In this document: piece by piece, positions 4,502-64,000 of the stretch | Numbering within the stretch: the stretch's first letter is position 1 | Layout of the letters: every line of letters begins with the position of its first letter | Program-made: the position numbers and the translations under genes | DNA from: an uncultured cyanobacterium | GTDB lineage: Bacteria > Cyanobacteriota > Cyanobacteriia > Cyanobacteriales > CAWUOF01 | DNA length: 64,000 bases | Direction of reading: 5' to 3' | Assembly (NCBI GenBank): GCA_963744145.1 | Contig: CAVUSO010000001.1 | Coordinates: 1,664,001 to 1,728,000, forward strand | Notes under the pieces: generated by a model | The model's database searches: none | Told to the model about the DNA's origin: nothing | The model's input: the letters and a program-made list of their open reading frames with translations, nothing else

Positions 4502-5383
4502 ATGGGGCATTCTGCTGCGGTTCTACCTCCCTGGCTCGTCTTAGAACCTATGTTGCACGCTTGGTTGCTCGAAGATATTGGTCGGGGCGATCGCACTACG
4601 GGTAGTCTATTCAATGGACAAGTTCCCAGGGGACGAGGAAAATGGATTGCTAAAGAATCTGGGATTATTGCGGGATTACCGATCGCAAGTAAAGTCTTTG
4701 GGCTTTTAAGCTCGGAAGTAAATTTCGTTACTAATATAGTGGATGGAGAATCTTGTAGTCCGGGACAAGTGATTGCGGTTCTCGATGGTCCACTTGATGC
4801 GCTGCTGATGGGAGAACGGGTAGCTCTGAATTTGTCGATGCGTTTGAGTGGGATTGCTACTTGTACAAGTCAGTATGTAGATTTAATTGCTGATTTACCT
4901 GTTCAATTAGTTGATACTCGTAAGACTACCCCAGGTCTAAGGTTGTTAGAGAAATACGCTACTGTTGTCGGAGGTGCTAGAAATCATCGTTTGGGGTTAG
5001 ATGATGCGGTGATGATTAAAGATAATCATATTGTTGCAGGGGGAGGGATTGAGCAGGCGATCGCCCAGATCCGATCGCGAATTCCCTATCCCTTGACGAT
5101 TGAAGTTGAAACAGAATCTCTGGCTGAAGTAGAATCAGCATTACAGCATGGCGCTGATATTATTATGCTTGATAATATGCCTCTAGATCGGATGGAGCAA
5201 GCAGTTAAGCTTATTCGTCAGCATAATCACCGCATCAAAATTGAAGCTTCCGGTAATATTACTCTCAATACTATTCGCGATGTAGCCCAAACAGGCGTAG
5301 ATTATATTTCTACTAGCGCTCCAATAACGCGCTCAACTTGGCTAGATTTAAGTATGAAAATAGATCAGACCACTATATATTAA
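4502..5383 (+). CDS. nadC: Nicotinate-nucleotide pyrophosphorylase (carboxylating)
   Basis: DTRKTTPG, NHRLGLDDAVMIKDNH, IMLDNM and EASG motifs; ATG at 4502 preferred. Confidence 0.95.
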   Translation: MGHSAAVLPPWLVLEPMLHAWLLEDIGRGDRTTGSLFNGQVPRGRGKWIAKESGIIAGLPIASKVFGLLSSEVNFVTNIVDGESCSPGQVIAVLDGPLDALLMGERVALNLSMRLSGIATCTSQYVDLIADLPVQLVDTRKTTPGLRLLEKYATVVGGARNHRLGLDDAVMIKDNHIVAGGGIEQAIAQIRSRIPYPLTIEVETESLAEVESALQHGADIIMLDNMPLDRMEQAVKLIRQHNHRIKIEASGNITLNTIRDVAQTGVDYISTSAPITRSTWLDLSMKIDQTTIY

Positions 5384-8343: not shown

Positions 8344-9266
8344 TTTTCATTATTTTCCGGAAACCAATGGTTGGTTCCAAATCCTACTGCTCTTTTGTTG
8401 GTTTGGATAGAAGCAGCTAATTTTAAAGCTGCTTGTCTACCAATTGGGGTTTCAAAAACTGAAGAAAAAACTAGATCAAGATGATAATTTTGGCAAAAAT
8501 TAGACAATTGAGAAGGAAACCCAAATATAGCAGGTTTAATCACAAATATTCCCCTCCAACCTTGGTGGTAATAGGTTTTCATTTGCTCGAAGTTAGCGAC
8601 GGATTCATCTAAAGCGATCGCTGTAGAATATTGTTGATTTAATTTTTGCATCGCTCTAAATTCACTGACGGGAAGTGGTTGCTCAATAAATTCAATTATT
8701 TCCCCAGATCGATCGCAAATTTCTAACCACTGTTGTGCTTCTTGTTCAGTTAAACCTCCATTAGCATCTAAACGCAATTTGGCTGATTTTGGTAACTGCT
8801 GAATTAAAACAGTAAAAATTTCCAGTTCAGTTTGAATTGGTGCAACACCAATTTTCCATTTAAAAGTATGATAGTCTTGCTCCCACAATGATTTCCATGT
8901 ACTTAAAGCTAATTTTTCTGCTGGTAATAAAGCACTGTAAGTAAGCTGTTTTTCTGTTTCCTCACTGGAGTTGGAAAATAAAATAGCAGACTCAAACCCA
9001 AATTGACAAGCAGGAAATTCTGTCGGAATTGACCAGATTATTTCCTCACTGATTTGAGTCGGTAATTGACTACAAAATTCGATCGCTTCCTCGATAGTCT
9101 CGGAACCAAACCAACTAATCGGGGCAATTTCACCCCAGCTAATTCTATTGGTTTCATCCGTTAGACTGATAATGATACCTTCACGAATTTTCCAGCACCC
9201 ATGACTCGTATATATGGGACGCTGAAATGGTTGTTGATAGGGATAAAAATTAAATTTATATAGCAT
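8313..9266 (-). CDS. menC: O-succinylbenzoate synthase
   Basis: KWKIG, RLDANGG, EQP and DES enolase-superfamily motifs; start coupled to menA stop. Confidence 0.9.
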   Translation of the reverse strand: MLYKFNFYPYQQPFQRPIYTSHGCWKIREGIIISLTDETNRISWGEIAPISWFGSETIEEAIEFCSQLPTQISEEIIWSIPTEFPACQFGFESAILFSNSSEETEKQLTYSALLPAEKLALSTWKSLWEQDYHTFKWKIGVAPIQTELEIFTVLIQQLPKSAKLRLDANGGLTEQEAQQWLEICDRSGEIIEFIEQPLPVSEFRAMQKLNQQYSTAIALDESVANFEQMKTYYHQGWRGIFVIKPAIFGFPSQLSNFCQNYHLDLVFSSVFETPIGRQAALKLAASIQTNKRAVGFGTNHWFPENNENWLKILCLPL

Positions 9267-10186
9267 TATCTCCAGGGAAGAATAAAACCTAACCCCAATA
9301 ATAAACCACTGCAAAAATGCAACCCGACAGCAATAAATTTACTGTTACTTACCCGTTCTGGTTGATCGTGATAGGTATTAACATGGTGGCATAATTGGAT
9401 GGCAAAAGGTAGACTACCAAAAATTAATAATGTCCAGAAGGGGAAAACTTGAAGCAGCACAAAAAAAACGGTGAGGACATAAATACTAGCAGTAGACCAG
9501 GTTAAGATTTGCGCTCCTTTTTTAGTACCGAGACGAACAATGGGCGATCGCTTACCAGCGGCTAAGTCATCTTCAACTTGATGAAAATGAGAACAAAACA
9601 AAATTATACTGGTGCTAATACCAATAATAATCGCAGCCACCAGATTAGTAAAAGACCAATTTTGAGTTTGACTGAAATAAGATGCAGCGATCGCTAGTGG
9701 TCCAAAGGTAAAAAAGCAGATAATTTCTCCCCAACCCTGGTATCCTAAGCGAAAGGGGGGACCTTGATAACTATAACCCAAAGCACAGCTAAGTAAGATC
9801 ATACCTAACACCGTCAAATTTTGTTGCCAGTAGGCGATCGCCCAGATCCCGCATATACCGAGCGCCAAAAATAGATTAGCTAACCAAAAGATTAAAGATT
9901 TATTACCAGTTAAATTCACCACCGAATGGGCTTTATTGACATCAATTCCGGTTTCCGAATCAAACACATCATTACTGAGATTGAGCCAAGCAATAATCAG
10001 GATAGCTGAAATTAAAAAAGTAGCAAATATTTGGCTATTAATTGTTTGAGTTTCAGCCACAGCAACAGCCGTTCCTACCCAGATCGGAATAATGGCTACA
10101 CTATACATAGGTGGTTTGATTGCAGCTAACCACAATTTACGATTCGTGATGGTTGACGAACCCGTAGTTTCTGAGTGGGTCTTCAT
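9266..10186 (-). CDS. menA: DHNA phytyltransferase
   Basis: AAIKPPMYSVA, NDVFD and EDDLAAGKRSP; UbiA family membrane protein. Confidence 0.93.
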   Translation of the reverse strand: MKTHSETTGSSTITNRKLWLAAIKPPMYSVAIIPIWVGTAVAVAETQTINSQIFATFLISAILIIAWLNLSNDVFDSETGIDVNKAHSVVNLTGNKSLIFWLANLFLALGICGIWAIAYWQQNLTVLGMILLSCALGYSYQGPPFRLGYQGWGEIICFFTFGPLAIAASYFSQTQNWSFTNLVAAIIIGISTSIILFCSHFHQVEDDLAAGKRSPIVRLGTKKGAQILTWSTASIYVLTVFFVLLQVFPFWTLLIFGSLPFAIQLCHHVNTYHDQPERVSNSKFIAVGLHFCSGLLLGLGFILPWR

Positions 10187-50674: not shown

Positions 50675-52027
50675 ATGACCAGACAAGCAGCAATAAGCAC
50701 TTTAGATTGGACCCGATCGATAGACATCAAACCATTAATTCTACATAAAGGCAAATTACCACAAGGTCGCGATCACCAACAGCACCAAGCAGCTTATCAA
50801 GAGAATCAGGAACTTTACGCGCTGAGTGCTTTATCTCCAACAATAACAACAGTTCAGCGTGAGCGGATCTTGTTCCAACTCTTGCGATCTTCTCGAGTGG
50901 GGATGTCTCCGGAAGTACGTCGGATTTGCGATCGGGTGGTCAAATTTCTGACTACAATCACCCATCCCGATCGCATCCTGACCATTTTTCTAGCATTACG
51001 AAGAGTTCGAGCTAATCACAAACATACATCAAGAACCATCCTCAATTATATCCTCAATCATCCTGACCTGGAAAACATGGCCAATTGCCGAAGACCCACA
51101 TTGGTCGATTGTCTGGAACATGGGATGGGGCGAAATGTGGCCCGAGCTTGTGCCAAAATGCTGATTAATCCAGAGGTTGCTGATCAAAAATATTTGCACC
51201 GTCATTTGTGGAAATTTACCCGCGATCGGGAATTAATTAAGGGAATTTTCCCCTTACTTTATGGTGGGGGAATATCTCAAAAAATCGCACCACAATATCA
51301 ACTTACCCATACCCAATACCTGGAAAAATTAGCAGCACAGAAAGAACGACCAAAAACTATTACAGCTACTAATCGGGGGGATATTTCTGCTACGCTGGTT
51401 CATCTTTATCGAGGGGGAAAATCTGTTGAACTACAACAAGCATTAACAGACTACGTTGAAAAAGCTGCTCAGAAACTACCAAAATTTGAGGGTAAATTAG
51501 CAATAGTTCTTGATGCTTCTGCTTCTACTCGTGGTTATGGTGAACGGGAATATTGCTGTATTTCTCAATCAGTTGCTTGGCAATTAGTATTGGAGAAAGC
51601 TTACCCACAAACAAAAGTTTATCCTGTGGGTGGTACGGAAAAAATCCCGATTCCCCAAGGTAGCACGGATTTAGCTAGTGCTTTAGTTGATGCTTTATTA
51701 GATCAACCCGATTTAGTGGCAATTATATCCGATGGTTACGAAAATATTGTGCAAGGTGACTTAGGGAGAGTTGTTGCTACCTTACCTCAAATTGGGATTG
51801 AGACTCCCATCGTATTTTGTCATAGCAAATTCACCAATAGTGATGACTTAAGTTTGCGACAAGCTGCACCAAATTTACCCCAGTTAGAATTCTGGCATGA
51901 AAATGATTTTGAATCATTACTAATTTCTTTAGCTGCATTAGCTAGACCAGAATTGAGTGCATCTGGTTTACGAGAATTCTTACTGAAAAAACTGGCTGAA
52001 ATTGAGCAAACTTTAGCGATCGGCTAA
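50675..52027 (+). CDS. Helical N-terminal domain + vWA domain protein (possible divergent TROVE/Ro60-like)
   Basis: MIDAS motif LDASAS...GSTD...ISDGYEN; basic helical N-terminal region; GGAGG RBS. Confidence 0.75.
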   Translation: MTRQAAISTLDWTRSIDIKPLILHKGKLPQGRDHQQHQAAYQENQELYALSALSPTITTVQRERILFQLLRSSRVGMSPEVRRICDRVVKFLTTITHPDRILTIFLALRRVRANHKHTSRTILNYILNHPDLENMANCRRPTLVDCLEHGMGRNVARACAKMLINPEVADQKYLHRHLWKFTRDRELIKGIFPLLYGGGISQKIAPQYQLTHTQYLEKLAAQKERPKTITATNRGDISATLVHLYRGGKSVELQQALTDYVEKAAQKLPKFEGKLAIVLDASASTRGYGEREYCCISQSVAWQLVLEKAYPQTKVYPVGGTEKIPIPQGSTDLASALVDALLDQPDLVAIISDGYENIVQGDLGRVVATLPQIGIETPIVFCHSKFTNSDDLSLRQAAPNLPQLEFWHENDFESLLISLAALARPELSASGLREFLLKKLAEIEQTLAIG

Positions 52028-52107
52028 TTTCTAAATATTGGTGAGGGTGGATTAATCATACACCCCACCAATCCCAACAATTTTCTTTTACCCAGGTACT
52101 CTAATAT

Positions 52108-53112
52108 ATGAAAAATCTAGACTGTCAAGCATTAGTACCTCGTGATTTTGATCTTTCCCCCTATCAATTTGGGATACCCCAGAAGTCAGGACCAATGACG
52201 GTAGTACCGATTTTTGGTCCAGAACGTGAAGGGAAATATACAGGTCCCCTGTCAGGATTAAAACTATCACGAGTAACTGGATATGGAAGTGTAGAACTTG
52301 CTAATCCTGACACAACTGGAATTGCGATCGTACCGCTCCATATCGGTTATATTCAAGATCAAGCTCAAAATCATGCTTTGTGTCGTTCTGCTTTTATTGC
52401 TGCTGGTCAAAAACTACTTTTTGAAGATGCTTGCTGTGTGCAACAATCTCAAGGTGGTTATTTGGAAGGTCGGGAACAATGGTTTTTTGTCTTACCAGTG
52501 CAATTGCGATATGAAGCATTACAACTACGAGGAAAAAAGAGTTACAGTAAGCTCTGGAATGACATTAGTCAGCTCAATCAAAAGTTTAAATTGGCTAATC
52601 ATGGTCATCTAGAGCAGATTATTACACGCCAACGAGCTTATTTAACTCAATATCAAAGTCGCTTTGAATTACTTAACAATCAAACTGGGGCGCTATTTTT
52701 TCTCAACCGTCAATTAGTGGGAATCGAAATTGCTCCGACGATCGCTTATTTTCAAGAACTATGGATGTCCCTCGTTTGTTTCTGCTATGGTGTGGGAGCT
52801 ATGTATTGGGAACAAAATGCGATCGCTGATCCTACCTTACCCGAACCTTTTGGAGCGAAAAACCTGCTAGAATTGCAAACCCAATTGCACCAAAGTCGTT
52901 GGGATTTACAAGCGCAAGTCAGTCAGGATTTGGCTAATACTCCATCGGAGAAATTTCAGATCCATGAGGAAGAAAGATTCTGTGATTTCCAGTTAAAAAC
53001 TGCTCTTGGTAAAAATTTTGCTGGACAGTTTGTGGAAAAAAAAGGAGAACTTGTTTATGCTTCTCTGTTTGCTAAATCAGAATTTGGCGTTGCTGATTTA
53101 CGGTATGAATAA
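52108..53112 (+). CDS. ARPP-like (DUF6569-related) domain protein
   Basis: MTVVPI, AQNH, ACCVQQSQGG, KLW..I and QTGALFF.N..LVGIE pattern recalled for this family; unverified. Confidence 0.6.
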   Translation: MKNLDCQALVPRDFDLSPYQFGIPQKSGPMTVVPIFGPEREGKYTGPLSGLKLSRVTGYGSVELANPDTTGIAIVPLHIGYIQDQAQNHALCRSAFIAAGQKLLFEDACCVQQSQGGYLEGREQWFFVLPVQLRYEALQLRGKKSYSKLWNDISQLNQKFKLANHGHLEQIITRQRAYLTQYQSRFELLNNQTGALFFLNRQLVGIEIAPTIAYFQELWMSLVCFCYGVGAMYWEQNAIADPTLPEPFGAKNLLELQTQLHQSRWDLQAQVSQDLANTPSEKFQIHEEERFCDFQLKTALGKNFAGQFVEKKGELVYASLFAKSEFGVADLRYE

Positions 53113-53176
53113 ATAATTTGTAGGGGCGCATGGCCATGCGCCCCGATTGATTTTCATACCCTGATTAAGCAACGCC
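53086..53176. repeat. MITE with TIRs and 8-bp near-duplicated target
   Basis: GGCGTTGCTGATT...AATTAAGCAACGCC-type ends; flanks CAGAATTT / CGGAATTT. Confidence 0.7.
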
Positions 53177-53650: not shown

Positions 53651-54538
53651 TTATCGATCGCTGAAATTTATCAAAGATAAACACTGATCTAGAGATTGTT
53701 TGACTGTTTTGACAGCTGCCTCTAAAGGCATATTTCTGATTTTCTCATTCCATGGTTCTACAGCAACAGGTCCAGTGTAGCCTTTTTTATATAGTGCTTG
53801 TAAAAAATCAATAATCTTAGTTACTCCTGTGGTCAATGGTAATTCTCTTTCAAACTCTGGGATGCTAAACATATCATAACCAGACAACCCATCATTTAAT
53901 TCTATATATAATAGATATTCTAAATCTAGATGATGAATATCCAGTACGCTTGCGCCGCTATTTTGCCAATGATGAACATCAAATTTCAATCCACCATAAC
54001 CATATATTCCTGCACTAGCAATCAGGGCGCGAGTACCATCTATAGTATGAATAAAGTCGTATTTTGTGCTGCACCTAGTTTCAGTAGGCCCGATAAACTC
54101 AAAGCCAATTTTGATATCATATTTTTGTAAAATTGGTTTTAGTTCCCGCAAGCGATCGCTAGTTTGAATAAATAGATCGTTAAAGTTACGCTCGTCGCTA
54201 AATGGTGGGAGGTAACAGAGAGTTAGCTTACAGCCAATTTCTTGAGCTTGTTTAGCCTGTAATTCAAATTGAGGTAAATTTTCCTCAAACTCTTTTTGGC
54301 TGCCAAATAAGTTCACAGGAATGCCAAATGAAACGGGTTTTAAATTAAGCTGGCTTAGTAATTCTTTGCACTCAGAAATGCTGAACAGATTCAGCATATT
54401 AAAATCAATATTAATCCCTTCAAATCGATATTGATGAGCCAAATTGCAAATTTTTTCAAAATCATTGACAATCTGACCAATATGTCCGCAGTGGTTTAAA
54501 TTACCAATAGGAGCAGTTAAATTTAAGATGGGATACAT
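53651..54538 (-). CDS. Sugar-phosphate isomerase/epimerase TIM-barrel (xylose isomerase-like/IolE-IolI-like)
   Basis: GFEF, FDVHHW, ELND and GYTGPVAVEP metal-site pattern. Confidence 0.8.
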   Translation of the reverse strand: MYPILNLTAPIGNLNHCGHIGQIVNDFEKICNLAHQYRFEGINIDFNMLNLFSISECKELLSQLNLKPVSFGIPVNLFGSQKEFEENLPQFELQAKQAQEIGCKLTLCYLPPFSDERNFNDLFIQTSDRLRELKPILQKYDIKIGFEFIGPTETRCSTKYDFIHTIDGTRALIASAGIYGYGGLKFDVHHWQNSGASVLDIHHLDLEYLLYIELNDGLSGYDMFSIPEFERELPLTTGVTKIIDFLQALYKKGYTGPVAVEPWNEKIRNMPLEAAVKTVKQSLDQCLSLINFSDR

Positions 54539-54653
54539 TTTCAATTTACCTATGAAGCAAATGTTAATAATTTTAGATATTTTACTGTTAAACACCTAAA
54601 AACAAGTTTCCCGATTCGTTCAATTCATCACTGTACATAAGTTCAGCTAAAAT

Positions 54654-55869
54654 TCAATTTTGTAAGCCTGGTAAAATAATATTAGAAGAAGATAGGTGCG
54701 AGTTTTTTGCCACCTGCCAAGCCAAAATACTTGCTATCAACATGGCTATTGTAAAAATCCAAAATGACCAAGATGGACTTAACATTCCGAAGACAAACCC
54801 AGTCGCAATCGGGCCAGCAATTCTAGCTAAGGCAGAAACCGATTCGGCTAAACCCAATATTTTGCCCTGCTCTCTTGCTCCAGCAGCTTGAGAAATTAGA
54901 CTGCTTAACAGAGGAAAGCAAAGAAAGTTGCCACTTCTATTCAAAGCTACTGCTCCCAATACCCAAGATATAGTCGTTGAAAAGGGTAGCAAAAATGCCC
55001 CAAAACCTGATAAGAGTAATCCCCAAAAAAGTAGATTGGCTTCACCAAAACGTTTGGTAAGTCGTTCGACAAATCCAGCTTGGACAACAACAGCTACTAA
55101 ACCTGAAAACATATAAATATAACCAATTTGTTGAGCATCTAAGCTTAACTGTTGTTTACACCAAATCCCCAGGATGGCACTCGTTCCTACCAACACGAAA
55201 GTATTCAAAAACAACGATAATATGAGCCAGACTATTAATGAACTCTGGAATATCTGTGCAAAACCTAAAAAGTTTAATGAGGAATGATTATTTTGGGTTT
55301 TGACTACCTGCTGCGCTGGTTTTGACTCAGGTAGAACCAGCAAAGCAATAATAAATCCCACTAGGGACATACTAGCAGCAAATAAAGGTGGGAGAATCAA
55401 ATTTGGATTTTGGGGGTTAGAACCCACCAATATACTGCTAATAGCCGGACCCAAACATAGTCCTACTCCAAAGGCAGTTCCAATGATAGCCATGCCCTTG
55501 GCTCGGTTTTCCTTGGTCGTAATATCAGAGATATATACCCTGATCCAGAAGTAAAGTTCCCGCCATCACTCCTTCTAATGCTCGGCAAGCAAACAGTACC
55601 CATAGAGAACTTGCACAACTCAACCACGCATAAGCAAAACTGCTACCGATTAGACTGAGCAATAGCATAGGACGACGACCAAAGCGCTCGCTCATCATTC
55701 CCCACAAAGGTGCGAAGATAAACTGCATTAAGGCATATATGCTAAACAGTAGTGTAACTACAGTAGGCGAGGCTTCAAACTTCGAGGCGTAAAATGGCAC
55801 TAAGGGTATAATGATTCCGAAACCAATCGTATCGATCAATGCACTTAAAAACAAGATCGAGTACATCAT
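54654..55869 (-). CDS. MFS efflux transporter, TetA-like (1-nt frameshift near 55540)
   Basis: DTIGFGIIIPLVP, SERFGRRP and YISDIT...RAKGMA; two ORFs join. Confidence 0.85.
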
Positions 55870-56390
55870 TCTATGTTTATTCCTGAGTCAACAATTTCCA
55901 ACTCTAGACAATCCTTTTCGATTAGCTTGTGAGTGAAATAATCTATATCACCTGTATCAGCAAGCTCTAAGTTATAGAAATCTACGAAATCATCATCGAA
56001 AAAAGGCCCAGCGTGCCAAACGCCCATTCCTATTTTAATAAAGCAATTACCAGGAATCCTAAAGGCAGTTAGTTTCTCTATTTCTGGTCGTTCTACCTCC
56101 GTTGGCGGAGCAACAACAATAAACCAGTCTTTTCCAATAGATCCTATACATTGATTGCATTCAAGGTGGCGCACTATTCTGTCAACATTTCGACCAGTTT
56201 TTTTCAAGCGCATACCCCAAAAAAAAGGAGTGCCATTTTCCAGGTTTAATACAACACCACCGCTTCGATCAGAAGGTCTGCCATTAAATGTACCCTGATC
56301 GTGAGCAGTGATTAATTCTCCAAAGGGTTGAAAGCTTTCTGATGTAATCCACTCAGCACGAACTTTTTTAGTTTGATAATCTGTAGTCAT
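55866..56390 (-). CDS. Ureidoglycolate lyase-like cupin
   Basis: ESFQPFG, RH..C.Q, GVWHAGP and FYNLELADT. Confidence 0.75.
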   Translation of the reverse strand: MTTDYQTKKVRAEWITSESFQPFGELITAHDQGTFNGRPSDRSGGVVLNLENGTPFFWGMRLKKTGRNVDRIVRHLECNQCIGSIGKDWFIVVAPPTEVERPEIEKLTAFRIPGNCFIKIGMGVWHAGPFFDDDFVDFYNLELADTGDIDYFTHKLIEKDCLELEIVDSGINIE

Positions 56391-56486
56391 GGTAATTCTT
56401 TTGCCTCCAAGCAAATTCAGAACTTAGTTTTATTTTCAAAATGAAGCTGATGTACTTCTAAACTATTCTCAACCATGATTCCTCCT

Positions 56487-57953
56487 TTAATTATCATTGA
56501 TGTATACCAGAGCTTTTTCCCACACAACTTTGGCAACTTGGCGACCAAGTTTTAAGCCTTCGATATGATCGGATTGGAGATGAGATCCACCATATAATTG
56601 CGAAATTCCTGCGGCTTCTGCTATAGATGTGAAAGTAGGAAATGAAAGGGTTACATTAGTTTCAAATCCTGGTTCGGTTAAAGCACCAGCCTTCACGGTG
56701 AACGATTCCCCAAAGTAGTCACTCCCAGTAAAGAGTTTGAGAATTTCAGCACAAGCAGCACTTACTGCGCTATGCCCAGCAACATAGCCCGGAAATGGTG
56801 GTGTGGTGAAACTATACGGTGAATAAGGATGCCATTGATTCCCCAACATTGTTATGGTTCCTTTCCCAGGACCACCCCACGCACGAACAGACTTTCGATC
56901 AAAATAATAATGGATCAGCGTCCAGGGCCGGGACCGATCATAGTAGCGTTTTGCGTCCCACGTCGCAATAAAGGCATCCATGACTGTGTTAGACAAAACG
57001 AAAAATAGCTTAATATCTTGATCTAGAGTGTGTTTATTTCGTCGAGCAATACTTTGCCCAAAACCTAACCAGAGCCCAGCTAGCCCAGCTTGCTGGTCCG
57101 AACCTGGTGCATCACGCATGAACTCAACTAGAGCTTTTTGTTCAGCAGTTAAGTTCGCACTCATTTCCAAAACTTGTTGAGCTTGCTGATCCAGTTGTTC
57201 GGAACCGACACTGGGTGGTGCAGGCGGTAGAAACTGATCGGGCCGCAACAGCGCAAAAGGCTTGACTCGATACCAATGAGGAGTCAAAAATTTTGGTGTC
57301 AGTGTTTCACCTTTGGAATCTACCAAAGAAATGGGCTGCCAATGGTTTGGATCTACGATTTTATCTACGGTATTGATTGGTTGATAAAAAGTGTAATCTG
57401 AGTAGGGCAATCCATTGGAGCCAAATTCATCCCCTAGTTGATTTGCACCATCATGATGTCGGTACTCAAGAATTGCTGCTGCAACAGTGTTTCCAATTCC
57501 TTGCGGAGTTGTTTTGTCCGTTGAATAGTCATCTGCATTGAATCCGAATTTCCGCATTTGAGATGCAAGATAAGCAGATTCTTCTGGATACATATCAACT
57601 AAAGTACGATAAGCAGCAAAGCTAATTGCTTTGGTTTGGTAAGTTAAACTCCTTTCTGATGCAGGACGACGCAATGTTCCTCCCAGACTATTTCCAATAG
57701 CTTTTTCGTCATAAGCAGCCCAAGCATCGAACATTACCGTTCCTAAAATAGCTAACGCCCGAGAGGTAACTGTTGGTCTAGTTCGATGACGAGCTACATC
57801 ATGGGATATTGTTTTAAAAGCGACATCCCACCACTGAAAAGCAATGCTTGGTTTCCAGCTTGAAGCACTTTTTGGTATTTGAGCATCTGCTGGCGCCAAA
57901 GACAAAAATAGCAATAGTAGGGTAATTATGAATGGCGTTAAACATTTTAACAT
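56487..57953 (-). CDS. Secreted vanadium haloperoxidase/PAP2-fold protein
   Basis: Signal peptide; K-X6-RP (KRYYDRSRP), PPFPGYVAGHS and SQLYGGSH. Confidence 0.82.
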   Translation of the reverse strand: MLKCLTPFIITLLLLFLSLAPADAQIPKSASSWKPSIAFQWWDVAFKTISHDVARHRTRPTVTSRALAILGTVMFDAWAAYDEKAIGNSLGGTLRRPASERSLTYQTKAISFAAYRTLVDMYPEESAYLASQMRKFGFNADDYSTDKTTPQGIGNTVAAAILEYRHHDGANQLGDEFGSNGLPYSDYTFYQPINTVDKIVDPNHWQPISLVDSKGETLTPKFLTPHWYRVKPFALLRPDQFLPPAPPSVGSEQLDQQAQQVLEMSANLTAEQKALVEFMRDAPGSDQQAGLAGLWLGFGQSIARRNKHTLDQDIKLFFVLSNTVMDAFIATWDAKRYYDRSRPWTLIHYYFDRKSVRAWGGPGKGTITMLGNQWHPYSPYSFTTPPFPGYVAGHSAVSAACAEILKLFTGSDYFGESFTVKAGALTEPGFETNVTLSFPTFTSIAEAAGISQLYGGSHLQSDHIEGLKLGRQVAKVVWEKALVYINDN

Positions 57954-59038
57954 GATGTTTTGTCAAGAACTCTTTTCACTAACTCCTGGTCAACCGTCAC
58001 CAAAAAATCTCCTTCAGGGTTATAACATTTGCCAACTTTCTCCAATAACACAAAGCGGAGAGCTTCCCCTGTTTTTTTATTATCTGTAATCATCGCAGCC
58101 ATGAGCTTTTCTGTGGTGATTCCAGCCGGAAACGGATTGTTAAAACCAAGCTTTTTTTCAATTACATAGTAATGTCGTTCCACATCTTCTTGTGAGATTA
58201 ATCCAAGCTCTTTAGAAAGCTCGGCAGCAATTTTCATTCCAAATGAAACTGCTTCTCCGTGAGAAACTTTACCCTGTTCGAGCCATTCAATTCCATGACC
58301 AAAGGTATGACCGTACTCAAGAATAATTCCATAGTGTTTCTCGCTGGGATCTTGCTTGATAATTTTTAATTTTGAGATGATGATATTATAGACTAGTTTG
58401 GATAATTCTTCGTCGGTAAACTTAACATCAGGATTGAGAACTTCTTCTAAATATTCCAAAAATTTTGCATCAGAAATAAAGCCATTTTTGATTCCTTCAA
58501 TTATGCCACTTCGCTTAGAAAAAGCTGGTTCTGTTCTCAAATATTGCGTATCTACCCAAATAAACATAGGTGCGTGATAGAGTCCAAAATGATTTTTTCC
58601 GGTTTTACCATTAATAGCCTGTTTATTACTTAGCGTACTGTCAGTTTGACCAGTCATAGTTGTGGGAATTTCGATAAACCTGATACCTCTATAAATTAAC
58701 CCAGCAGCTAGACCAACAACATTTCCAACTGTCCCCCCACCAAAAGATATCAAAATAGATTTTTTGGAAACACCTTTTTCAATTAAGTTTTCACAAGTTT
58801 TTTCCAGTACTGGAAAATATTTACATCTTTCGCCAGGAGGAACAAATTCTAAGAAACAAGTGAAGTTTTCGCGAAGCTTTTCATATAGAGACTTTCCGTA
58901 TAAATCAAATAAATGTGGTTCAGTAAAGAAGAATATTTTATCAAAAGTATACTTCTCTAACTCAGACAGAAAACCATGCTCTATGTCATAGCCGAAATAA
59001 AAAGGACTCGGGTTTGCTAGCTCTGTACTTAATTCCAT
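57947..59038 (-). CDS. 2-deoxy-scyllo-inosose synthase-like sugar phosphate cyclase
   Basis: GGGTVGN, DSTLSNKQAIN, EGIKN, EYGHTFGH and HGEA match BtrC-type rather than AroB-type signatures. Confidence 0.78.
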   Translation of the reverse strand: MELSTELANPSPFYFGYDIEHGFLSELEKYTFDKIFFFTEPHLFDLYGKSLYEKLRENFTCFLEFVPPGERCKYFPVLEKTCENLIEKGVSKKSILISFGGGTVGNVVGLAAGLIYRGIRFIEIPTTMTGQTDSTLSNKQAINGKTGKNHFGLYHAPMFIWVDTQYLRTEPAFSKRSGIIEGIKNGFISDAKFLEYLEEVLNPDVKFTDEELSKLVYNIIISKLKIIKQDPSEKHYGIILEYGHTFGHGIEWLEQGKVSHGEAVSFGMKIAAELSKELGLISQEDVERHYYVIEKKLGFNNPFPAGITTEKLMAAMITDNKKTGEALRFVLLEKVGKCYNPEGDFLVTVDQELVKRVLDKTSC

Positions 59039-59249
59039 TACTTTTCCTCGTTCAATTTTAAAAGATTGCCAATAATCAACTCTTAAATTTTGCCCTAAAA
59101 TATTGTGACCCTGATCTGCTATTTTCATTTGCCACCATCGCTTTTTTTATTAAAATTAACGTTTTTTGTACATATTTTGAGCGCTATTGGCAAACGTAGC
59201 CCGAACTGACCGCCTTTTCAGACGAGCGGCCCAGTAGTTCGCGGATGCG

Positions 59250-61949: not shown

Positions 61950-64000
61950 ATGAATATGATTAACATTCCTGGTATAGCTGTTCTCGCTCTCATATATGAA
62001 AGCGCTAACTCATTGGTTTATAGAGGGAGAAGAGAGGAAGATGATCAGCCACTAATTCTCAAACTATTAAAAGAAGATTATCCTAGCCCAGCCGCGCTGA
62101 CTAGATATAAACAAGAATATGAAATTACTTGTTCTTTAAATCTGACTGGTGTAGTGAGAGCTTATGATTTATATAAATATCAAAATTCGTTAGTAATGGT
62201 TTTAGAGGATTTTGGAGGAGAATCCTTAAGGATTTTGATGAATTCCCAAAGATTTACCCTGTTAGGTATCCTAACGCTCGCGATTAAAATAGCTGAAAGT
62301 TTGGGAGAAATTCATGCAGCTAATATTATTCACAAAGATATTAATCCTTCTAACATAGTGTTTAATCCAGCCACTGGACAACTGAAACTAATTGATTTTA
62401 GTATTTCTACCGTATTAAGTCGCGAAAATCCTACCTTAAAAAATCCTGCTGTTTTGGAAGGTACTTTTGCTTATATGTCTCCAGAACAAACTGGAAGAAT
62501 GAATCGAGCTTTAGATTATCGGACTGATTTTTATTCTCTCGGTGTGACTTTCTACGAACTTCTGACCCAGAAAGTACCTTTTCCAAGTACCGATCCAATG
62601 GAATTAGTCCATAGTCATATTGCTAAACAACCCATTCCACCCCATGAGGTTAATCTAGAAATTCCGAAAACTCTGTCTGATATCGTGATGAAGTTATTAG
62701 CAAAGACAGCTGAGGAAAGATATCAAAGTGCTTATGGATTAAAAGCAGATTTAGAAAAATGTTTGACCCAATTACAGACAATTGGCTATATTGAAGATTT
62801 TCCGATCGGTAGTCAAGATATTTCTGACAAATTTCAAATTCCCCAAAAACTCTATGGTCGAGAAAAAGAAGTAGAAAACTTGATGTCAGCTTTTGAAAGG
62901 GTCAGTCGTGGTTTAACCGAAATGATGTTGGTTAAAGGTTATTCCGGGATTGGTAAATCAGCTTTAGTTCAAGAAATTTATAAACCGATTACTAGAAATC
63001 GCGGCTATTTTATTGCTGGGAAATTTGATCAATTTCAACGGACTATTCCCTATTCAGCAGTAGTGATTGCTTTTTCAGAATTAGTCAGGCTATTGTTAAC
63101 TGAAAGTGAAGCTCAGTTAACTAAGTGGAAAAAAAAGATTCTCCATGCAGTTGGACCAAATGGTCAAATTATTATTGATGTCATTCCCGAAGTAGAATTG
63201 ATTATCGGTCCTCAACCCCCAGTTCAAGAATTAAAACCAGCAGAATCCCAAAATCGCTTTAATCTAGTTTTTCAAAATTTTATTAAAGTCTTTTGTTCGC
63301 GAGAACATCCCTTAGTGATATTTCTTGATGATTTACAGTGGGCTGACTCAGCTACCCTGAAATTGATCGAGCTAATGATGACAGATGACCAAATTCATTA
63401 TCTATTTTTAATTGGTGCTTATCGTGATAATGAAGTGAATCTAACTCATCCATTAATGATCATGCTGGATGGGTTAGAAAAAGAAAGAGTAGTGATTAAT
63501 GAAATTGCCCTAGCACCATTAGATTTGGAACAGGTAAATAAATTAATTAGTGAAACTTTACATAGTGAAGCGATCGCAGTTAAACCATTAGCGGAATTGG
63601 TAATCAATAAAACCGATGGTAATCCCTTTTTCGTTAATGAATTTCTGAAGACTCTCTACCAAGAAAATCTCATTACCTTCGTCCCTCCATCATCTGGTCA
63701 ACAAGCAGGATGGCACTGGGATATAGCTCATATTCATAGAATGGATATCACCAATAATGTGGTAGAGCTAATGATCGGTAAATTGAAAAAGCTCCCAGAA
63801 GGAACGCAACAGGTTTTACGTTTAGTAGCTTGTTTGGGGAACCAATTCGATCTCAATAACCTCTGTCTCATTTATGAAAAACAAGCATCAGAAACTTTCC
63901 AAGACCTTTGGCCCGCTATTCAAGAGGGATTAATTTTACCAGTTTCAGAATTAGAAGCAGTCGAGATAGAATTAATTAGTCTACCTTTACTAATTCTCAA
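61950..64000 (+). CDS. Ser/Thr kinase-AAA ATPase multi-domain sensor (runs off window)
   Basis: HKDINPSN, DFS, YMSPEQTGRMNR, Walker A GYSGIGKS, LDDLQWAD and GNPFF. Confidence 0.92.
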   Translation, partial: MNMINIPGIAVLALIYESANSLVYRGRREEDDQPLILKLLKEDYPSPAALTRYKQEYEITCSLNLTGVVRAYDLYKYQNSLVMVLEDFGGESLRILMNSQRFTLLGILTLAIKIAESLGEIHAANIIHKDINPSNIVFNPATGQLKLIDFSISTVLSRENPTLKNPAVLEGTFAYMSPEQTGRMNRALDYRTDFYSLGVTFYELLTQKVPFPSTDPMELVHSHIAKQPIPPHEVNLEIPKTLSDIVMKLLAKTAEERYQSAYGLKADLEKCLTQLQTIGYIEDFPIGSQDISDKFQIPQKLYGREKEVENLMSAFERVSRGLTEMMLVKGYSGIGKSALVQEIYKPITRNRGYFIAGKFDQFQRTIPYSAVVIAFSELVRLLLTESEAQLTKWKKKILHAVGPNGQIIIDVIPEVELIIGPQPPVQELKPAESQNRFNLVFQNFIKVFCSREHPLVIFLDDLQWADSATLKLIELMMTDDQIHYLFLIGAYRDNEVNLTHPLMIMLDGLEKERVVINEIALAPLDLEQVNKLISETLHSEAIAVKPLAELVINKTDGNPFFVNEFLKTLYQENLITFVPPSSGQQAGWHWDIAHIHRMDITNNVVELMIGKLKKLPEGTQQVLRLVACLGNQFDLNNLCLIYEKQASETFQDLWPAIQEGLILPVSELEAVEIELISLPLLIL

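Follow-up and report, generated by a model that had tools for sequence, protein, structure and literature searches.

A rare cyanobacterial cassette combining a cyclase like 2-deoxy-scyllo-inosose synthase with a TIM barrel and a predicted exporter

Sugar phosphate cyclases start a range of natural-product families, including the aminoglycosides, validamycin, acarbose, mycosporines, gadusol and, lately, the ebo/thallusin compounds. Here we describe a gene cassette at positions 53651-59128 of a 64,000-nt stretch of DNA from an uncultured cyanobacterium (the whole stretch is hereafter termed the window, and gene order is given in the direction of transcription), at the head of which lies a cyclase resembling 2-deoxy-scyllo-inosose synthase (abbreviated DOIS). 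The ebo operon, in the accessible part of its published description, encodes the deoxy-epi-inosose synthase EboD together with EboE, a protein resembling xylose isomerase, and the accessible part of a 2026 preprint reports the aromatic core of thallusin to be cyclitol-derived by way of the ebo pathway. The limited library of literature that was searched, in which engineered production of 2-deoxy-scyllo-inosose (DOI), aminoglycosides, ebo and reviews were found, contained no description of any such DOIS-like cassette native to cyanobacteria; to that extent the proposal made in an initial annotation of the locus, that it encodes an undescribed cyanobacterial metabolite, stands, although many orthologues of the cyclase are already named '2-deoxy-scyllo-inosose synthase' in public records.

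Comparison of the locus with its relatives indicates that it is a rare, mobile and uncharacterised cyclase-TIM barrel-exporter cassette with a swappable accessory gene, the pump of which is broken in the present assembly. The separate DOIS-like clade to which the cyclase belongs, with no aminotransferase found beside it, a TIM barrel always adjoining and an exporter usually so, suggests that cyanobacteria and a few other bacteria make products of a class not yet characterised.

Identity of the cyclase

The cyclase (393 aa, minus strand, 57947-59128) matches both PF01761 (98.2 bits) and PF24621 (103.9 bits) and thus has the fold of 3-dehydroquinate synthase (DHQS) and the sugar phosphate cyclases. 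Its score of 256.2 bits on the aroB model TIGR01357 falls below the cut-off of 305; a canonical aroB elsewhere in the same genome scores 407.4 bits, the cyclase being the second DHQS-fold gene of that genome. Amongst solved structures its best relative is BtrC (2d2x, 185 bits), the best AroB reaching 158 bits and other AroB entries less. Against these 185 bits the C7 cyclitol synthases score far lower, at 78.9 bits for ValA (4p53) and 75.7 bits for 5tpr (which we take to be a demethyl-4-deoxygadusol synthase, the entry itself being titled 3-dehydroquinate synthase), so that the protein is not assigned to that group, in accordance with its first description. The motifs on which that description had relied (GN, DSxLSxKQAxN, ExxKN and EYGHT) are present, as GN at N136, DSTLSNKQAIN, E211-x-x-K214-N215 and ILEYGHTFGH, and discriminate against DHQS; the E-Y-G-H-T form of the last was found in 120 of 120 close homologues.

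Wider sampling drew on a search of 1.84 billion proteins; its best 150 representatives at 50% identity included 86 E-type sequences and 35 of the DHQS N-type, the first N-type standing at rank 56. Of these representatives, the 38 whose lengths fell outside 330-460 aa were set aside, and a selection of the others, made by clade, went into an IQ-TREE tree of 65 sequences, in which DHQS, the aroB of this genome among them, split off as a clade with 99% SH-aLRT support. The E-type sequences formed two sister clades, one of 20 rows that is BtrC-like (99%) and one of 32 rows that holds the window cyclase (95%). Tested representatives of the 20-row clade scored 263 bits to BtrC, compared with 185 for the window cyclase, which lies outside the clade of BtrC-like sequences, BtrC itself being related to the tree through PDB scores alone. 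The phylogeny thus sets the cyclase apart from DHQS, as had been predicted, but places it in a sister clade rather than within the BtrC-like one.

Across the alignment of all 65 sequences 26 columns are invariant, and six separate the DOIS-like from the DHQS consensus. At these six the window cyclase carries the DOIS-type residue in five (N136, L144, S167, E271 and N350) and the DHQS-type residue in none; the sixth, position 153, is a clade-specific Glu where the DOIS clade has His. Scores, motifs and tree together indicate a cyclase that is DOIS-like and not an AroB, in line with its original assignment, and from its residues and phylogeny we infer DOI as its putative product.

Database names provided no named anchor for the tree, since ten representatives of the cyclase cluster carry generic names only; JGI gives several homologues as '3-dehydroquinate synthase'. 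The NCBIfam model TIGR04425 (AroB-related putative sugar phosphate phospholyase), whose cut-off of 400 bits the window cyclase misses at 184.5, was considered as an anchor for EboD and set aside, as it matched none of 21 relatives; we do not equate this model with EboD. Within 201 genomes of the phylum nearly all of its matches lie at about 240-260 bits and look like aroB cross-hits, with one match, from a small-genome lineage, above the cut-off.

Architecture and distribution of the cassette

Synteny was assessed between the window and 12 loci with cyclases 73-82% identical to its own; as one of these, L015, breaks off at the cyclase and so tells nothing of what follows, 12 loci with downstream sequence remain when the window is counted. 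A TIM barrel follows the cyclase in 12/12, a major facilitator superfamily (MFS) transporter in 10/12, a short-chain dehydrogenase/reductase (SDR) in 8/12, a cupin in 2/12 and a protein of the vanadium haloperoxidase (VHPO) family in 1/12, namely the window. Two arrangements recur. The type I cassette (eight loci) consists of cyclase, optional cytochrome b561 or Zn-dependent alcohol dehydrogenase (Zn-ADH), MFS, TIM barrel and SDR, whereas the type II cassette (the window, L003, L013 and L014, whose cyclases form a 97% clade) runs from the cyclase through a variable slot and a cupin-MFS pair, itself optional, to the TIM barrel. Between the types the cyclases are about 75% (73-82%) identical; the corresponding figure for the TIM barrels is 22%, and for the MFS proteins about 28-33% over one third of their length. 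The TIM barrel and MFS genes of the two types therefore appear to be non-orthologous, and the same architecture to have been kept, or rebuilt, from non-orthologous parts, which is our strongest argument for joint action of the cyclase, the TIM barrel and the pump. Conserved co-occurrence, which had been anticipated for the whole cluster, is accordingly seen for the TIM barrel and largely for the MFS gene, but the five genes do not form a conserved unit.

The variable slot holds a TerB-like gene in L013, a Tat-signal intradiol dioxygenase (related to the protocatechuate 3,4-dioxygenase beta subunit) plus a TerB-like gene in L014, cytochrome b561 in L010 and L011, Zn-ADH in L008 and, in the window, the VHPO homologue with its signal peptide; several of these enzymes are predicted to be exported or membrane-bound. 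In L009 a two-domain multicopper oxidase lies directly upstream of the cyclase. Intradiol dioxygenases, VHPOs, multicopper oxidases and cytochromes b561 usually act on phenols, catechols or quinones and not on polyols.

Neither an aminotransferase, whose absence had been remarked upon at the outset, nor any other 2-deoxystreptamine gene was found among the neighbours scanned, these being part of the open reading frames (ORFs) across the loci. A different E-type cyclase, 34% identical and falling in the 20-row BtrC-like clade, occurs at L012 (G356:C122, 1353-7927), co-oriented with a DegT-type aminotransferase, a nucleotidyltransferase, a SIS protein, a GT2 glycosyltransferase and a MatE pump; this run appears to be an aminocyclitol-like cyanobacterial cluster.

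Within the window, all sizeable ORFs in the 53.6-59.1 kb interval lie on the minus strand, in the order cyclase, VHPO-like gene, cupin, MFS and TIM barrel. The co-orientation initially reported is thus correct, but there are six ORFs rather than five genes, since the MFS gene is spread over two ORFs in different frames, and the cyclase begins near 59128, not at 59038, its orthologues aligning from residue 12-16. The start of the TIM barrel (295 aa, minus strand, 53651-54538; PF01261; the 'type II' xylose-isomerase-like form) is placed at 54538 by its conserved N-terminus, MYPILNL. Both of the overlapping junctions that had been described are borne out, that between cyclase and VHPO-like gene as a 7-nt overlap, ATGTTAA, at 57947-57953, and that between cupin and MFS as a 4-nt overlap, ATGA, at 55866-55869, by which the cupin would be translationally coupled to the MFS gene. 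No convincing minus-strand terminator was found inside the cluster.

Several further features adjoin these genes. Between the VHPO-like gene and the cupin a 19-codon minus-strand ORF (MVENSLEVHQLHFENKTKF, 56417-56476) is preceded, a few bases upstream, by an AGGAGG box, and the spacer at 56436-56372 in part resembles that preceding the TerB-like gene of L013. Upstream of the cyclase, L003 (6349-7248) and L013 (2021-2908) carry divergent LysR-type regulators that are mutually 76% identical; the window has a nucleotidyltransferase gene in this place. Convergent with the cassette on the plus strand (50675-53112) is a pair comprising a 450-aa ORF without Pfam match followed by an ARPP-1 domain protein (PF20208), with a strong hairpin at 53123-53144 between this pair and the cassette. 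A large plus-strand ORF at 61950-63998, which runs off the end of the window, shows by eye Ser/Thr protein kinase-like motifs and then a P-loop NTPase region.

Orthologues of the cyclase that are 70-84% identical occur in many cyanobacterial lineages, with Aphanothece sacrum, Anabaena sp. 54 and Nostoc sp. among the named carriers; those of Silvanigrella and Fluviispira (P0095, P0100 and P0102; 61-65% identical) are nested inside the cyanobacterial clade, which suggests transfer between phyla. At E <= 1e-60 the cyclase was found in four of 401 genomes of the phylum, a count that includes the present genome and one 34%-identity paralogue, and amongst 41 relatives in three, again with this genome counted. 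In three relatives that do not have the cassette the upstream pair of ScpA and nucleotidyltransferase genes is conserved, and similarity to the window stops right after the transferase, at the start of the cyclase. The cassette thus appears to be rare and patchy, and its horizontal spread to be better supported by this patchiness and by the synteny break than by the paucity of highly iterated palindrome 1 (HIP1) sites from which horizontal acquisition had first been argued. Exactly one HIP1 site (GCGATCGC, 54152-54159, strand not assigned) does lie within the cluster, out of 50 in the window, but the paucity is not significant either at the window-wide rate (4.19 expected, Poisson P = 0.078) or when the last 24 kb set the expectation (2.05 sites, P = 0.39). 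The first 40 kb of the window contain 41 sites and the last 24 kb nine, the HIP1-poor zone being far wider than the cassette. The GC content of the cluster genes, overall and at third codon positions (GC3), lies within about 1.5 standard deviations of that of the window's 37 long ORFs. Composition as measured by HIP1, GC and GC3 says little on origin, and its signal for horizontal transfer is not significant.

Candidate pathway and alternative readings

We read the locus as a small, patchily distributed operon for a C6 carbocycle derived from a hexose phosphate, a reading that we regard as evenly balanced. In the first step the cyclase, to judge from its residues and phylogeny, would convert a hexose 6-phosphate, most likely glucose 6-phosphate, into DOI or a stereoisomer by the NAD+- and metal-dependent oxidation, phosphate elimination and aldol chemistry of the DHQS fold. 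The TIM barrel, given its invariable linkage to the cyclase gene, would then act on the keto-cyclitol by enolisation, as an epimerase, an isomerase or a beta-elimination dehydratase, and in this sub-lineage the AllA-fold cupin could, on the grounds of its fold, add a second step of keto-enol type. A DHA1-type MFS pump would export the product, as its family suggests, and the enzyme encoded in the slot, here the exported VHPO homologue, would modify it outside the cytoplasm, as signal peptides and gene position imply. With the pump frameshifted in this assembly and a conserved, presumably anion-binding Arg missing from the VHPO homologue, the locus may neither export nor halogenate in the manner outlined.

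As to product class we lean, tentatively, towards a phenol of hydroxyquinol- or catechol-like kind, formed by dehydration; a non-aromatic deoxy-inositol we consider possible and somewhat less probable. The aromatic product is favoured because several of the slot enzymes appear to be exported or membrane-bound and belong to families that usually act on phenols, catechols and quinones. In its fullest form, which we think quite unlikely, the proposal is that the DOIS-like cyclase and TIM barrel lead from hexose phosphate, independently of the shikimate pathway, to a phenol of the hydroxyquinol or catechol type; the pump would release this phenol, and the slot enzyme would then act on it in the periplasm by oxidation, cleavage or some other modification. 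Were this so, the product, a redox-active exometabolite, could be of use in iron reduction or chelation, or in allelopathy, in soil and mat cyanobacteria, and the Arg-less VHPO homologue may have acquired a function other than halogenation.

A number of observations weigh against the reading of the locus set out above. The clade of the window cyclase is the sister of the BtrC-like clade and is not contained within it, so that substrate or product could differ, as is the case for EboD, and the tree on which this placement is based, to which BtrC is attached by its PDB scores, is made up of sequences that have not been characterised experimentally. The aromatic product is argued from the kinds of genes that neighbour the cyclase, and the type I cassette, with its IolO/ketose-3-epimerase-like TIM barrel and its SDR, would suit a non-aromatic deoxy-inositol. 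The window is the only locus at which a VHPO-like gene accompanies the cyclase; cupins of about 50% identity are found as solitary genes in unrelated contexts, far from the cyclase, in three other genomes (G320, G390 and G412); and the MFS exporter is frameshifted in the assembly. A promoter scan of the cluster returned 13 promoter-like matches, which is not above chance (16.3 expected).

The strongest alternative, which we nevertheless judge unlikely, is that the product is a non-aromatic cyclitol (a deoxy-inositol, a quercitol-type compound or an epimerised inosose), with the TIM barrel as an epimerase or isomerase and the type I SDR, present in 8/12 loci, as a ketoreductase. For the type I TIM barrel the nearest likenesses are the 5-keto-L-gluconate epimerase IolO (125.7 bits, cut-off 300) and ketose 3-epimerases, although it scores far below the cut-offs of IolO, QuiC and IolE. 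For the window TIM barrel, whose orthologues in L003, L013 and L014 are 80-86% identical, the best PDB match is 3u0h (70.9 bits), and the sole named solved relative is the inosose isomerase IolI (29.2 bits). The 'IolE/IolI-like' label attached to this protein can hence be retained in the sense of a distant likeness to IolI, but not as regards IolE, for which there was no match, the protein's only NCBIfam match being to an unrelated epimerase model at 18.6 bits. A search of a protein atlas with the TIM barrel returned generic TIM-barrel clusters only, and its AlphaFold 2 (AF2) model, derived from a four-sequence alignment, was poor (mean pLDDT 53.8), so no fold search was based on it. The cupin (174 aa, minus strand, 55866-56390, with a GGAGG box upstream) offers the same alternative some further support. 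It matches PF04115 at 34.9 bits (cut-off 23), and its AF2 model (pLDDT 83.6) has as its best Foldseek matches AllA-type chains (2bdr, 1xsq and 1yqc; TMq 0.71-0.73, 18-23% identity), which together assign it the AllA fold; the next fold neighbours are keto-sugar epimerases and isomerases. On the NCBIfam ureidoglycolate lyase models it reaches at most 33.8 bits against cut-offs of 160-282 (best 33.8 against 230), short of an equivalog assignment. Against a non-aromatic product stand the type II cassettes, the window included, which carry no reductase; the slot enzymes, whose families normally act on phenols, catechols or quinones; and the exporter-type pumps, which would be unexpected for a compatible solute.

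A second alternative, less probable again, confines the functional unit to cyclase, TIM barrel and, ancestrally, MFS, with the VHPO-like protein as an unrelated periplasmic enzyme in a permissive slot and the cupin as a copy of a widespread solitary gene. The VHPO-like gene (488 aa, minus strand, 56487-57953; DUF6851, VCPO_2nd and PAP2 domains following a hydrophobic, signal peptide-like N-terminus) is a clean, lineage-specific single-gene insert, since the DNA of the window ceases to be homologous to that of L003, L013 and L014 at 57960, thirteen bases short of the stop codon of the cyclase, and homology resumes at 56436. Its GC content is 0.435, compared with 0.354 for the cyclase, and Acidobacteriota, Myxococcota and Verrucomicrobiota commonly have homologues of about 55% identity. 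Cupins of about 50% identity are likewise widespread in cyanobacteria, those in unrelated contexts noted above amongst them, and the window genome has one copy only; together with the low counts of both genes across the loci (1/12 and 2/12) these findings favour the smaller unit. Set against it are the 7-nt and 4-nt overlaps, which point to co-translation; the retention of the cupin-MFS pair in L013 at 90% DNA identity, the cupins themselves being 86% identical; and the filling of the same slot in other loci by exported or redox enzymes. The closest homologues of the VHPO-like protein (80% identity) and of the cupin (89%) moreover each lie on a contig of 5994 bp, an equality of size by which the VHPO-cupin arrangement probably exists once more on a single contig.

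More improbable still is that the cluster is decaying or silent in this organism, its pump a pseudogene, its VHPO active site eroding and nothing made or exported. The MFS gene is represented by an N-terminal fragment (114 aa, minus strand, 55525-55869; MFS_1 profile positions 1-102) that ends at a premature stop and a C-terminal fragment (279 aa from an internal ATG, minus strand, 54654-55493; MFS_1 positions 123-347), and alignment with the intact 405-aa orthologue of L013 locates one extra base at about 55548 (55545-55552, minus strand), outside any homopolymer. The working exporter originally envisaged is therefore not encoded intact in this assembly. The N-terminal fragment is TetA-like, far below cut-offs, and the C-terminal fragment is 83% identical to the L013 protein; the MFS proteins of both cassette types resemble drug or siderophore exporters. 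Related loci bear scars that would fit decay. In L003 a 52-bp remnant of an MFS 3' end lies just upstream of the TIM barrel gene (9230-9280), the pump, and probably the cupin, having thus been deleted in that genome, and in L013 the 3' end of the cyclase gene is present once more, as a 54-codon stretch (4806-4967; 78% identical to residues 332-385) that follows the TerB-like gene and looks like a rearrangement scar in the variable slot. These losses, and that of Arg452 from the VHPO homologue (see below), have to be set against the intact reading frames of cyclase, cupin, TIM barrel and VHPO-like gene, and the frameshift could be an assembly error: contigs of X1, the one DNA sequencing run in which the sequence was found, no RNA run being listed, match parts of the cluster exactly, but they do not cover the site of the frameshift (depth 0.19 in that bin), which is neither confirmed nor refuted by them.

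The original version of the pathway now seems a long shot; in it DOI, once isomerised or dehydrated and then aromatised, would be the substrate of a functional vanadium haloperoxidase, acting either before export or after it, to give a halogenated cyanobacterial metabolite. The VHPO-like protein does belong to the family by homology and domain architecture, with 9ptr (214 bits), NapH3 (169 bits), NapH1 (140 bits) and 9l8x as solved relatives, and both its signal peptide and the overlap of its gene with that of the cyclase are consistent with such a role. Of the residues invariant in its 120 best homologues it retains K335, R342, P343, H394, S451, G455, G456, H458 and D462, and G393 is also kept. 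The anion-site motif is nevertheless incomplete, since position 452, Arg in 118 of the 120 and presumably vanadate-binding by analogy with fungal chloroperoxidase, is occupied by Gln in the window and by Gly in the closest relative, in which, moreover, AAHG replaces the SGHS of most homologues. With Arg452 lost, vanadate-dependent halogenation and PAP2-type phosphatase activity are both doubtful, and with the gene present in none of the 12 other loci, and the exporter that would deliver a substrate to the periplasm broken, the halogenation or dephosphorylation first suggested is poorly supported. That the cyclase is instead a redundant or alternative 3-dehydroquinate synthase of the shikimate pathway, as the sub-threshold aroB match and the JGI names might imply, is scarcely credible in view of the canonical aroB in the same genome, a score under 305 bits, the DHQS-type residue at 0/6 discriminating columns and the separation of the DHQS clade at 99%.

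The case cautions against taking every neighbouring gene as a member of a cluster. A three- or four-gene cassette could be expressed heterologously with little effort, rendering its product directly testable.

Comparison with known systems

AroB shares the Pfam domains and the metal- and NAD-site residues of the window cyclase, which differs from it in falling below the curated cut-off, in lacking the N-type motif (L-N-x-G-H-T; DSS.GGK) and in its separate clade, the genome having its own aroB. With DOIS of the BtrC type, its best solved relative, the cyclase has in common the fold together with N136, S167 (in DS.LS.KQA.N), E271 (in EYGHT) and N350; it differs in its position in a sister clade and in the Glu at position 153 where the DOIS clade has His. 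BtrC-type clusters also differ in their surroundings, in that the window cyclase adjoins no aminotransferase, glycosyltransferase or other aminoglycoside gene and has a TIM barrel and an MFS protein as its partners.

The bacterial VHPOs 9ptr, 9l8x, NapH1 and NapH3 have the same domain architecture as the window homologue, which keeps most of their motif residues but replaces Arg452 by Gln and does not lie in a meroterpenoid cluster. IolI, IolO, IolE and the 3-dehydroshikimate dehydratases share the PF01261 fold with the TIM barrel, and the reactions they catalyse take place beside the carbonyl of a ring or chain, as would be required on a deoxy-inosose. The likeness is a distant one, at 29.2 bits to IolI and with no match to IolE for the window protein, the type I protein lying below the cut-offs of IolO, QuiC and IolE.

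The ebo operon differs from the cassette in that the 50-64 kb region of the window contains no UbiA prenyltransferase, TatD-like hydrolase, EboA or alkaline phosphatase/phosphodiesterase-family gene. Nevertheless, in a likeness established by description and not by comparison with EboD or EboE sequences, both systems would pair a DHQS-like C6 deoxy-inosose cyclase with a xylose-isomerase-like TIM barrel, and in ebo, according to the accessible part of the sources, the cyclitol is reported to be turned into an aromatic scaffold. By analogy, and as far as that part of the sources extends, the ebo pathway may therefore be regarded as a precedent for the cyclitol-to-aromatic logic proposed for the cassette described here.

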